A DNA stretch of 64,000 nucleotides, from NCBI GenBank assembly GCA_951406725.2, contig OX597814.1, forward strand, positions 106,764,001 to 106,828,000, read 5' to 3'. Positions 40,005 to 52,019 of the stretch are shown piece after piece. The first letter of the stretch is position 1. Each line of letters begins with the position of its first letter. The notes under the pieces are model-generated. The model was given only the letters and a program-made list of their open reading frames with translations. It was not told the origin of the DNA and searched no databases. Position numbers and translations under genes: made by a program. This DNA is from Octopus vulgaris. Its lineage: Eukaryota.

Positions 40005-41717
40005 TATTATAAAAGGCAGATTTTATCTGCCTCCCTTTGTATCTTATAGAAATCTACAATATAGGATTTCTTCAATTACAATTTACCTAGCATTTTTATC
40101 TGCCTCCCTTTGTATCTTATAGAAATCTACAATATAGGATTTCTTCAATTACAATTTACCTAGCATTTTTAAGAGTAGAATGCATCGGGTTTTGCCAGGT
40201 CCACTTTTTAAAATTTCAACCCCAATTAAGCAAAATTTAGAGAAAACTCACATTGTGGTGTATGCGTCAAATGCTTCTCTTAGTGTGGTCTACAGCACAC
40301 GCACACGCACACACACAGTGTGCAACGAATAAAGTGAAAGTAATTCACTGTGTGTGTGTTGACAAGTAGACAGTAGAATGCGATGGCGATGGCGATGGCG
40401 ATGTAATATTTGTTTCAGTCTATGACGCTGATAGATACATGAGTAAAATGTATGGGACGCTAAGAGATAAGAGTGAGTGAAAATGTTCTTGGAAGAGAGT
40501 AAATAGCGAGAGAGTGATTTGAGGAAGACTTTACATTAAATAACCGTAGTGGCTTGTCAAATGAAGAGGAGTGAAAGGGTACTGGAGGAAATAGGGTGAG
40601 TGAGGAAGATGGCCCCTAGCAACCACACCTTTTAAGATAGGGATTTCTAAGGTAGCCCACGAGCATCGTCACCTCATTCTACATGTCCCTGTAAATTTTG
40701 GAGCAAATCGAACGGGATAAAGTTATCTCTAAGAAACAGAAAGATCGCCCAAAAGTGTATATAGATATTTAAATGTATTTATATATTCATCTATACACAC
40801 ATGTATGTATAATGTGCGTGTATATATTTCCATAACCATTCAATCCATACAAAGTTTTTTAGGACGAAAATATTTATATATAAAAGAAAGGTTGTGTGTC
40901 TGTCTACTCCGATTTAGATTCCTAACTACTCCCACATTTTGCGATGCAGTTTAACCAAAACCGGGTATCTTATAGTCGTGATTCATATCAAGCCCTTCTG
41001 GGTATTAACGCGCGTCTACGATGAGTCTATGATTTTACAAATAATTTACCATCATTTTTTTCCATTTTAACGCATATTTTTTTTAATAAAGGGAAGTAAC
41101 TCTCAAACTTCACACCAATATGCGTGCTCATATGCGACGTAATATCACATCAGCAGCATTTCCTCACACTCTCCTTGCACTTGGCGAAGGCAAAATACCA
41201 GGGGATGAAAATGGTAATATTGCCATCGATTCCATTTGTAACATTGTTAAGACGCCTTCTGATCTCAGAGATGCAGTGTTCCCAGATCTACAAGCTAATT
41301 ATCAGAATATGGATTGGATTGGCAAAAAGGCTATACTGGCCCCGAGGAATAAAACTGTTCACCATATTAATGATGAAATGCTAAAACTCATTCCTGGGGA
41401 AGTCTGTGTATATCAGTCTATCGATACAACTCCTGACCCAGAGGACGTCATCAACTATCCAATAGAGGTACTCAATTCCTTTGAGCACCCCGGACTACCA
41501 CCACACTTTCTCAAACTTAAAGTTGGTGCCCCTATAATGCTCATCAGAAATTTGGTTCCCCCAAAACAATGCAATGGCACACGTTTGATCGTTAAGTCCT
41601 TATCTCCCACCGTAAACTTATATCAATATTTGCCTGAATAATCATCATAATTCAGTGCAATCATTAACAGTACTTTCAAGCAATTCAGCCCCGAGCAACG
41701 CCGGGCAATTCTTCTAG
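40002..41717 (+). mobile_element. Composite Helitron inserted in (AT)n
   Basis: 5' TC, 3' hairpin CCCGAGCAACGCCGGG + CTAG, A|T target, internal about 75-bp duplication (40020-40170), second Helitron 5' end at about 40873. Confidence 0.85.
41105..41615 (+). pseudogene. PIF1-family (Helitron RepHel) helicase fragment
   Basis: NMRAH..LLALGEG..KAILAPRN..V..IN..YQSID..YPIEVLNS...GLPPHFLKLKVGAPIMLIRNL....CNGTRLIV. Confidence 0.92.
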
Positions 41718-41781
41718 TATATATATATATATATACAGTTTGGCTGCTTGCTTCTCTGGAGACTGTCAGAATGATGTAGAC

Positions 41782-41824
41782 ACCTCTGATGAGAACCTAA
41801 TATGGTCCGAAAATCGATTACGGT
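41782..41824 (+). ncRNA. Minimal hammerhead motif, unit 1
   Basis: ACCT-CTGATGA-GAACC taata TGGTCC-GAAA-ATCGAT-TA-CGGT; one stem I mismatch. Confidence 0.72.
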
Positions 41825-42082
41825 TGCTCATCATTTTTTCAGCCTGTGGAGAAATGGCTAAAATTTGCCCTGTTTATAATTATCCCCTATGTTACATATT
41901 TATTACACCATACCTTGATACTGTGTGAACTAAGATCCCAGTTGACAGGTGGCTGGTATTTATAGAATGTTAAACACTTTCGGTATGCAAATTAAGGACC
42001 CCTTCATAGAGTAACTACTGAATGTGTTGAGTATATAAACAGTTTGGCTGCTTGCTTCTCTGGAGACTTTCAGAATGCTGTA

Positions 42083-42136
42083 GACGCCTCTGATGAGAAG
42101 CCCATAATGTTCGAAAATCGATTAAGGCTGTTCGTC
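42083..42136 (+). ncRNA. Minimal hammerhead motif, unit 2
   Basis: GAC-GCCT-CTGATGA-GAA..TTC-GAAA-ATCGAT-TA-AGGC..GTC; palindromic stem III AATCGATT. Confidence 0.8.
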
Positions 42137-42452
42137 ACTTTTTTTTAGTCTGCAAAGAAATGTCTATAAGTTTCTCTGTTTATAATTATACTATGTTACA
42201 TATATATGTGTGTATGTGTGTGTGTACACACACACACATATTCATATACATATATGTGTGTATATGGTTTAATTCAAAATTAAAGATGAAACAAAACGAT
42301 TTGTGATTATTTGTGAAAATGTGTTTTCGGTATCATTAAATTATGAACAGACGTGGTTGGGTGGTTAGGAGCTTACTTCCCAACCACATTGTTCAGGGTT
42401 CAGTCCCACTGACTGGGAAGTGTCTTCTAGTATATCCTCGAACCGACCAGAG

Positions 42453-42522
<70 letters not shown>

Positions 42523-43449
42523 TCTTGTTTCCCTTCCTCGCTAATTCTAACCCAGAAACATTCTCATTGCGTTCTCTTTCTCTCTGTCTCTCTGTCTCTC
42601 TACCTCTCGCTTTCGCTATCTATCTATCTTTCATTGTTTCTCTCACACTTTTTCTCTCTTCCTCTCTATCTCTCTATCTCATCCACTTTCTATCTCCTTC
42701 TGCCTCTCTTTTCCTCTCTCTCTTGCTGTCTCCCTCTCTCCTCCTCTCATCTTCTCTCTCTGTTCTCTTCTCATTTTCTCTCTCTCTCTCTCTTTCTCTC
42801 TCCCTCTCTCCTCCTCTCATTTTCTCTCTATCCTCTCTCCTCCTCTTTCTCTCTCTCTCTCTCTCTCTAGGGAGTCTCCTCTGCAACTCTACTTCCTTAC
42901 CGCCCTATTCTCTCCTCTTATTAGTTCCCATTAATCTTTAAAATAAAACTAAAAGGAACCTTTTTTTGTTAATGTATTTCCCTTCTCTTTTTTTTCCACC
43001 GCAGTAAAAAGAGGTGGGGTGGGACAGAAATGGACGAGCAGGAGGAGAAAGAGGAAGAAGAGGAATAAATAAAAGATAAAAATGAGATGCAATGCGATAC
43101 AAAAAAAAAGTTCTTCAAAATTTTAAAAACAAAACCAAAATTGAAATTTTAAAACAGAAAAACAAAGAACATCAAAGAAAAAGAAAATTCTAAAAATGGT
43201 AAAACCAAACAATGGAACCGTAATAAAAACAACTATTCTAGCAATCAATCTTTCTAAAAATGAAAAAGATCTACGTATAAAAGCAAAATAAAAATGATAT
43301 TTGCCAGCTTTAGGTGGTTGGCGAGGGATGCGGGTAACTCACTGAGCCGTGCCTTCACAACAGACTAACAGTAACTTAGCTTAGGGCTAATTATTGAGGA
43401 CGCTGTGTGTCATAGCGATGCGTTGGATACTACCACAAGCAACAGCCAC

Positions 43450-51563: not shown

Positions 51564-52019
51564 AATCTTGCAAAACAAATTCATAAACGTCGTGTCTTTT
51601 TTTTTTTTTTTAGTTCTCATCATTGTTTGGATCGGTTCCCATCGTGTGTGTTTTGTTAAAATATTTGTCAAGGATGGTGAAACTGGGAGAGCTTTTGCTG
51701 CTCCCTGTATTTCTGAATTATTTAACGCCTAAGAAACATGTGTTGATTTCTCTGCACAGTTTCTAAAAGATTTGGAAGCTGATGAGAGGCAGACATGTCC
51801 ATGAAAATTAAATATTTCTAAGCATTTAGTTTCGTTCCTCGACTATTTGAGTTCAAATCCCTTATGATTTTTCTTGATTTTGGTACGGTTGGAATCGATA
51901 AAATGAAATGATATTGATCTACTCCGAACGTCGATTCAACCGACAGCAAACTCATCTTTTGTAATAAGTTAAGCATTGGTAAACAAGTGGTCAGTAAGAT
52001 CTGGACACCTTTATATCGT

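Follow-up and report, generated by a model that had tools for sequence, protein, structure and literature searches.

The question raised by this locus is whether two hammerhead ribozyme motifs, lying 304 nt apart in a non-coding repeat of Octopus vulgaris, mark the source of a small circular RNA, the product of retrotransposition or the worn end of a larger retroelement. The window analysed here is a 64,000-nt stretch of DNA (C1:106764001–106828000, contig OX597814.1), and searches were carried out over the 2.8-Gb assembly of 227 contigs. The initial annotation had described an approximately 304-bp tandem hammerhead repeat of about 1.5 units as a candidate retrozyme or as a solo pseudo-long terminal repeat (pLTR), the terminal repeat of a Penelope-like element (PLE). 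Our analysis suggests that the element at 41728–42207 is probably a worn, 5′-truncated copy of an old, dispersed, non-coding hammerhead family, likely target-primed into a microsatellite by the reverse transcriptase (RT) and endonuclease of a PLE.

By BLAST, two direct repeats were identified at 41728–41903 and 42032–42207, with 83% identity over 176 nt and a start-to-start spacing of 304–306 nt. They were made up of three ungapped blocks, 41728–41839 versus 42032–42143 (87% identity, 112 nt, spacing 304), 41834–41883 versus 42140–42189 (80% identity, spacing 306) and 41887–41903 versus 42191–42207 (94% identity). The whole element spans 480 bp, or 1.58 units of the 304-nt period, which bore out the tandem structure first annotated. 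The 304-nt repeat was not listed by Tandem Repeats Finder (TRF) in the window, its copy number being just 1.58. No significant further unit sequence was detected 5′ of 41728 and the adjoining (TA)9 (local alignment score of 13 against a shuffle mean of 15.6), and an apparent upstream extension of the unit past the (TA)9, first judged by eye, was dropped because this score was not significant. The absence of an open reading frame (ORF) that had been noted for the element loosely holds, but a stop-to-stop frame of 86 aa (41668–41928), the longest one, does overlap it. The parts of the element and its junctions are as follows, the letters A, B and C denoting the modules of full-length copies described below.

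41718–41735, no strand: (TA)9 microsatellite at the 5′ junction (TRF, period 2, 9 copies).
41728–41903, plus strand: 5′ copy of module B, 176 nt (unit positions 1–176), which holds hammerhead 1 (direct repeats, BLAST).
41771–41834, plus strand: hammerhead motif 1 (read from the sequence; relaxed descriptor).
41821–42124, plus strand: predicted 304-nt product, if both hammerheads cut (from the predicted cleavage sites).
41904–42031, plus strand: single-copy part of the unit (177–304) between both repeats, composed of the 60-nt core C and the 68-nt module A.
42032–42207, plus strand: 3′ copy of module B, ending at the fixed 3′ terminus of the family (...GTTACAT plus an AT run; direct repeats, BLAST).
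42075–42138, plus strand: hammerhead motif 2 (from the sequence; most relaxed descriptor).
42203–42266, no strand: compound TG/CA/TA microsatellite at the 3′ junction (TRF rows at 42203–42254; inverted-repeat pairs).

The window copy was therefore read as modules B-C-A-B, the first A module being missing, which makes it a 5′-truncated copy. Unit positions 177–304, present once in the window, were kept across the family copies, which match the unit over 1–304.

Each repeat contains the pattern CTGATGA..GAAAATCGATTA (41786–41820 and 42090–42124). Hammerhead numbering placed the predicted cleavage, after A17, at 41820 and 42124, 304 nt apart, exactly where it had been proposed. Both motifs read CUGAUGA...GAAA-AUCGAUU-A with intact cores. 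In motif 1 (core at 41786–41792, GAAA at 41809–41812, A17 at 41820), helix I has a distal AUGAUG/CAUCAU part and a proximal ACCU/CGGU part with a C·U mismatch at 1.1-2.1, helix II (GAACC/GGUCC) has one A·C mismatch, and the palindrome AAUCGAUU lies at 41812–41819. In motif 2 (core at 42090–42096, A17 at 42124), the proximal helix I (AGGC/GCCU) is intact, the distal helix I is degraded, and helix II keeps just 3 bp (GAA/UUC), its loop having 10 nt; this variant was found at just 2 places genome-wide. The strict hammerhead descriptor was failed by both copies. Copy 1 passed if one mismatch in helix II and one in helix I were allowed, and copy 2 only after helix II was permitted to shrink to 3 bp and loops to reach 12 nt.

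The bare core pattern matched the window 3 times against 0.73 expected, and at least 3 matches occurred in 7 of 100 shuffles, which is weak taken alone; the full descriptor, which requires helices I, II and III besides the core, found 0 matches in 150 window shuffles. The third bare match (CTGATGA..GAAA..TH) at 51779–51820 on the plus strand is probably due to chance, because 0.73 such matches are expected per window. No Rfam hammerhead was matched at the gathering threshold in the whole window, nor at E ≤ 10 in 41600–42350. Rfam miRNA-like matches at 42184–42275 scored below the gathering score and were rejected as simple-repeat hairpins.

The ribozyme could be read more completely in better preserved copies elsewhere in the genome. 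The well-kept copy L095 (1536–1619) has all hammerhead core bases, with CUGAUGA, GAAA, G10.1-C11.1, A15.1-U16.1 and A as H17. Its helix I (4 + 6 bp) is formed by a distal AUGAUG, a 5-nt internal loop and a proximal GCCU, and closed by AGGU, a 4-nt loop and CAUCAU; helix II is GAACC-CAAUAA-GGUUC (5 bp plus loop), followed by GAA; helix III is A-A-UCGA-U-U, that is, 2 bp with a palindromic UCGA tetraloop, which gives the 8-nt palindrome AAUCGAUU, followed by A17 and the cut. As described previously, the canonical metazoan type I hammerhead has a helix III of 1–2 bp with a 2–4-nt palindromic loop and is active as a dimer in tandem repeats, because helix III is too weak in the monomer (PMC4209133). 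On paper, the best-kept copies would fold as such a hammerhead, and self-cleavage of the family hammerheads is predicted. When the proposed structure was laid on 44 copies, 86.9% of cells were paired, compared with 19–54% in slid registers. Cofolding of an L095 dimer yielded an 8-bp intermolecular helix III and both helices II, yet the cores paired with CAUCAU.

The search with the 304-nt unit returned 1975 first-look candidates, 40 of which were scored, giving 84 matches on 20 contigs at 72–91% identity; a 596-nt query returned 2281 candidates, of which 40 were likewise scored. The common layout of these loci was a variable 5′ start, one full unit and then positions 1 to ∼170–183 of the next unit. 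The 3′ end was fixed: 49 of 57 sampled arrays (three loci being counted twice in this list) stopped at reference positions 164–183, just after ...CCATATGTTACAT. This end, ...GTTACAT plus AT, sits 77–90 nt past the predicted ribozyme cut. The 5′ starts were scattered over positions 1–435 of the 554-nt copy, five of them within positions 1–9. The five longest copies, at ∼554 nt, began within ∼20 nt of each other, at unit position ∼225–245, and copies picked solely for a near-intact ribozyme were 108 to 475 nt long. None of the 40 + 40 scored loci exceeded ∼1.8 units (∼554 nt), and no locus scored with the 596-nt query reached 5′ of query position 42. In the longest copies the order is A(68)-B(176)-C(60)-A(68)-B(176), B being the ribozyme module, i.e. 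two 244-nt ribozyme-bearing direct repeats around a 60-nt core, and most long copies carry two ribozymes. The GC content of the unit is 34–39%, and that of the predicted 304-nt product of the window is 38.5%.

Some apparent boundaries were discarded. Where 5′ starts bunched at the ribozyme core (reference positions 127–132), this was put down to a BLAST boundary effect, because several flanks there still resemble the unit. Two arrays, L017 and L025, seemed to end at the cleavage site; in L017 an ∼85-nt internal replacement was found, after which the unit resumes, leaving L025 as the one array that ends there without explanation. Two short copies on different contigs, L073 and L090 (G000:C3:153420697 and C20:28992577), have near-identical flanks; rather than independent insertions, they represent a segmental duplication or a duplicate in the assembly.

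The elements were found to lie next to simple repeats. Of 46 elements, 16 had a microsatellite within 30 nt of the 5′ end (p = 1 × 10–4) and 24 had one within 30 nt of the 3′ end (p = 2 × 10–10), compared with a background of 12.8% in the distal flanks of these loci. The AT-rich tail of the element itself may have seeded part of the 3′ runs. Target duplications above the 95th percentile of the null were seen in 3 of 17 clean pairs (11, 15 and about 25 nt); in L094, a 554-nt copy lies between an 11-nt duplication matching at 10/11 positions. The flank of L091 contained one tail-to-head tandem of two elements. Downstream of the window element, at 42340–42450, lies a repeat resembling a short interspersed element (SINE), in which one tRNA-like segment looks like a B box; a (TC)n microsatellite of 414 bp (42455–42868) comes after it. 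Pieces of seemingly the same SINE-like repeat adjoin many family copies (L010, L014, L020, L024, L062 and L013), which fits the use of the same microsatellite targets by both elements.

PLEs are abundant in this genome. A search for GIY-YIG returned 6136 candidates, many of them with 781-aa open frames. The ORF of L037 (G000:C16:20837296–20840559) contains RVT_1 together with GIY-YIG at the C terminus, and its 3′ untranslated region (UTR) of ∼1.16 kb runs straight into (TA)n. With its relatives L042, L050 and L056, L037 represents an abundant, apparently intact PLE, 781-aa frames being present at many loci; its 3′ UTR contains internal tandem repeats of ∼93 nt, two copies of which, at 2120–2347, are 92% identical. 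Neighbours of the PLE ORF in a protein atlas gave a weak pointer to Mollusca. PLE insertion is reported to be biased to microsatellites (PMC8557442), and animal retrozymes have been proposed to be non-autonomous PLE derivatives (bioRxiv 10.64898/2026.07.22.740005). For the one PLE studied in vitro, it is described that the RT starts 111–118 nt into the ORF and that the hammerhead cuts at +26, so the insertion end would lie 85–92 nt past the ribozyme site (PMC11167929). This shared geometry (77–90 and 85–92 nt), taken with the 5′ truncation, the insertion into microsatellites and the tandem of two elements, leads us to infer that the family was mobilised by a PLE.

In the course of events proposed, source copies would be transcribed across both ribozymes. 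As helix III is weak, the two motifs would pair through AAUCGAUU and cut as a dimer, and the 304-nt RNA thereby freed could be closed into a circle by ligation. Reverse transcription by the PLE enzyme would begin at an AT-rich nick, from an internal position ∼80 nt 3′ of the ribozyme site, and proceed toward the 5′ end, often halting early.

Several observations weigh against this reading of the locus. The scored sample (40 of ∼2,000 per search) was biased to long, query-like copies, so that both the length ceiling and the counts come from a biased sample. Target-site duplications (TSDs) were overall not significant (Mann–Whitney p = 0.28). Over the 44 copies, covariation was not above that of shuffles (paired 86.9% versus 87.3%; score of 0.117 versus 0.121), and the ribozyme was not better kept than the rest of the unit (conservation of 0.893 versus 0.917). 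The fold thus derives from the founder sequence, of which it is a property, and the family copies decay neutrally. The best family copy scored below the Rfam cut-off for Hammerhead_3 (RF00008; 12.8 versus 48.5 bits, E = 3.3). RF00163 did not match it either. Nearest-neighbour folding favoured a hairpin sequestering the core with CAUCAU (–17.8 kcal/mol) over the hammerhead (–7.3 kcal/mol). Four monomers folded as circles gave z values of –0.49 to –2.34 with 61–67% of bases paired, all of them being decayed copies; for the 304-nt circle of the window, the minimum free energy was –64.5 kcal/mol (z = –0.69 versus shuffles).

The enzyme assigned to the family raises further objections. In 30 GIY-YIG loci with 1.5 kb on either side, a small sample of PLE families, neither similarity to the unit nor a hammerhead was detected. 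The 1.16-kb 3′ UTR of the abundant PLE aligned to the unit no better than shuffles did, and it contained no canonical hammerhead. The PLE fragment abutting one family copy had no second family unit after its ORF. No autonomous partner of related sequence was found among the sampled PLEs, and a partner among the long interspersed elements (LINEs) was not searched for; 5′ truncation with a fixed 3′ end would also fit LINE-mediated copying. A genome search with RF00163 revealed 6 other hammerheads in families unrelated to the unit, none with a PLE ORF next to it. A different hammerhead family was observed at L124, L125 and L128 (G000:C7:15930010, C1:98507175 and C15:53489332; Rfam Hammerhead_1, 34–36 bits). 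It has an insertion of ∼70 nt in helix II and the palindrome ACGAUCGU as helix III, and its sequence is unrelated to the 304-nt family.

The form of the template was considered separately from the enzyme. The ends of the family copies do not fall at the ribozyme site, which implies that copying did not simply begin at the 3′ end of a cleaved monomer. The ∼554-nt ceiling and the clustered 5′ ends of the longest copies favour a linear, uncleaved transcript of ∼1.8 units. The only sister of the window copy lies 1.1 Mb away; its flanks are unrelated, and it is truncated at another point. Among 10 informative sites between the two, 8 were colinear, 0 by-locus and 2 crossed; the 8 shared position-specific variants suggest that the two repeats were already unlike in the template. 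Across the loci compared, no fixed position-specific differences between the two repeats were found, and the mean identity of repeats within a locus was 84.6%, compared with 82.8–84.6% between loci. In 136 locus pairs, 325 by-locus sites were counted versus 149 colinear and 153 cross sites, a few loci dominating these counts, and in the 17 loci other than the window and its sister, rare variants were shared within the own locus at 1.18 versus 0.69 (p = 0.0095). The by-locus excess fits homogeneous templates, gene conversion or circles, and the pattern is overall ambiguous between a linear and a circular template.

On these grounds, it is conceivable, and we hold it tentatively, that the family is a self-contained 'mini-Penelope' of fixed design, ∼554 nt long. 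It would be inserted into microsatellites by copying of a linear RNA that had not been cleaved, beginning internally ∼80 nt past the ribozyme site. In that case animal retrozymes could transpose without a circular RNA stage, and the circle would be a by-product.

A different enzyme would be required if the family were a SINE-like retroposon copied by a LINE, with the hammerhead as a passenger or processing signal and PLEs uninvolved. A precedent would be the schistosome Sm-alpha SINE-like repeats. These and newt satellite 2 are repeats of ∼330 nt with type I hammerheads in which helix III is short, so that cleavage as a dimer is favoured; they are described as RNA polymerase III (Pol III) or satellite transcripts. 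The fixed 3′ end, the scattered 5′ truncations and the occasional target duplications of 11–25 nt are LINE signatures too, and sequence shared with the unit was found in no sampled PLE. However, a run of 5–9 T lies right after each family ribozyme, which argues against Pol III transcription, as a T6–8 run would stop the polymerase; and no tRNA-family Rfam match at E ≤ 10 was obtained in 41600–42350, contrary to what a tRNA-derived Pol III SINE would show. The ribozyme-to-3′-end distance fits the internal initiation described for a PLE (PMC11167929), the microsatellite targeting is common to the resident PLE and is published for PLEs (PMC8557442), and hammerheads with a palindromic helix III are given as a hallmark of PLEs and retrozymes (PMC4209133). 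LINE-mediated copying is therefore considered unlikely, and copying by a PLE is preferred.

Somewhat less probable still is that the family is the 3′ tail of an autonomous PLE, in which case the window would contain a heavily 5′-truncated PLE or a solo pLTR, as the initial annotation had allowed. Hammerheads are described as typical of pLTRs (PMC4209133), and most PLE insertions are reported to be 5′-truncated, with the terminal repeat only (bioRxiv 10.64898/2026.07.22.740005). In addition, a PLE ORF fragment was found within 1.5 kb of four unique family loci, always on the same strand; these fragments look like neighbours in the same target rather than parents. Against this reading, the five longest copies all stop within ∼20 nt of each other at ∼554 nt, in unrelated flanks. 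The 600-nt upstream flanks of the 14 longest unique copies were mutually unrelated, except for two short SINE-like overlaps, and were free of PLE ORFs. The dissimilarity of the unit to the 30 GIY-YIG loci and to the 3′ UTR of the abundant PLE, and the absence of a unit after the ORF of the PLE beside one copy, also speak against it. The suggested check on whether the unit forms the terminus of an autonomous PLE thus came out negative, and 'solo pLTR' is not supported, since sequence common to the unit was found in no sampled PLE.

It is very improbable that the window locus itself is an active retrozyme gene, its transcript being cut after 41820 and 42124 and closed into a circle of 304 nt, even though its two motifs are in the right register with intact cores. 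No run on record as RNA was listed for the stretch. Contigs from four runs guessed to be RNA, from three studies, contained family-like sequence, most of it 80–95% alike; they spanned predicted site 1 in every run and, in one listed record, site 2. These contigs reveal neither ends, strand nor circles, and leave 41650–41725 (all runs) and most of 42144–42190 uncovered. At many fixed positions their sequence departs from that of the window, which means that they derive from other copies. Contig joints that go back by ∼298–304 nt follow the 304-nt period and fit tandem DNA, multimeric RNA or circles equally. Both motifs are damaged with respect to the strict descriptor, motif 1 being mismatched and motif 2 having a helix II of 3 bp, and a promoter was not identified.

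The age of the family also argues against activity at the window. Pairwise identity among about 60 unique elements had a median of 84.1% and a maximum of 92.9%. Majority-base agreement per column was ∼0.89–0.92, compared with 0.77 at CpG positions, which suggests methylation-driven decay of the unit repeats in the O. vulgaris genome. With 1 mismatch allowed, a 49-nt stretch of intact ribozyme was matched at only 33 sites in the genome, 4 of them exact, and in the 44 copies the core was intact in 25, the strict descriptor matched 7 and the relaxed descriptor 14. By these measures the family is old, young members being absent from the sample, and it looks extinct; the window copy is probably inert, and it is unlikely to give rise to circular RNA today. 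Of the two roles proposed for the locus in relation to a circle of ∼300 nt, that of source was abandoned because of the damaged hammerheads, the 5′ truncation, the age of the family and the colinear copying with the sister; product of retrotransposition is the better reading.

Finally, slippage or unequal crossing-over can make tandem repeats and microsatellites do flank the locus, but an origin of the 1.58-unit structure by local tandem duplication of DNA (a satellite seed) can be set aside as scarcely credible, because the layout of one unit plus positions 1–176 is found again, ending 3′ at the same point, in dozens of unlinked loci across 20 contigs, and the sister 1.1 Mb off shares position-specific variants and not flanks.

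Two further features were observed upstream of the element. A 183-aa open frame at 41090–41641 on the plus strand contains a Pif1 2B helicase domain (PF21530, E = 2.6 × 10–15) and is broken off ∼90 nt ahead of the hammerhead element; it is probably a remnant of a Helitron-type or Pif1-like helicase. A tandem duplication with a perfect 73-nt period (2.1 copies, 100% match) is located at 40021–40171.

As a dead copy, the window locus has no special standing. The family to which it belongs bears on the wider question of how animal retrozymes move (by rolling circle on circular RNA or through linear transcripts) and by which enzyme. It provides a clean natural record of this process, with a fixed 3′ end 77–90 nt past the ribozyme site, a ceiling of ∼1.8 units and microsatellite targets shared with PLEs.

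Compared with plant LTR retrozymes (PMC4918200), the 304-nt family has the same arrangement of two hammerhead-bearing direct repeats flanking a non-coding core, from which double cleavage would yield a unit-length RNA. In contrast to the family, the plant elements are described with type III hammerheads, true LTRs with a primer-binding site and polypurine tract, 4-bp TSDs and circles of 600–1000 nt.

The resemblance to PLEs is closer in some respects. As in the hammerheads of PLE pLTRs, helix III is too weak in the monomer, the palindrome would allow dimers, and there is one ribozyme per direct repeat (PMC4209133). The insertion end lies ∼80–90 nt beyond the ribozyme site, as in the PLE described in vitro (PMC11167929), and the family has in common with PLEs its 5′ truncation, its tail-to-head tandem and its AT-rich or microsatellite targets. 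Unlike a PLE, the family has just 60 nt between the repeats, no RT/GIY-YIG ORF and no similarity to the sampled resident PLEs. Its helices I and II are of canonical size and not of the 'min-HHR' form with a long helix II.

Metazoan non-LTR retrozymes offer the best comparison. As described (PMC7229834), these are non-coding repeats of 150–450 bp with type I hammerheads and low GC, without LTR or ORF, present in thousands of copies in genomes that also contain PLEs, and with long target duplications when any are present, all of which resembles the family. Published members differ from it in forming arrays from dimers to tens of units and in producing abundant circular RNAs with highly self-paired folds (PMC7229834), whereas the circle folds predicted for the 304-nt family, computed on decayed copies, look unremarkable. 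The family further departs from them in having at most 1.8 units in the sample, near the lower limit of the published range, a pLTR-like A-B...A-B design and no detected kinship with resident PLEs. With tandem type I hammerheads, a palindromic helix III and no ORF, and unattached to any PLE ORF, the window element is better named a retrozyme than a solo pLTR and is better understood as a product than as a source. The family, sharing most of the sequence-level features of metazoan non-LTR retrozymes, is on that basis a retrozyme-like non-LTR member.

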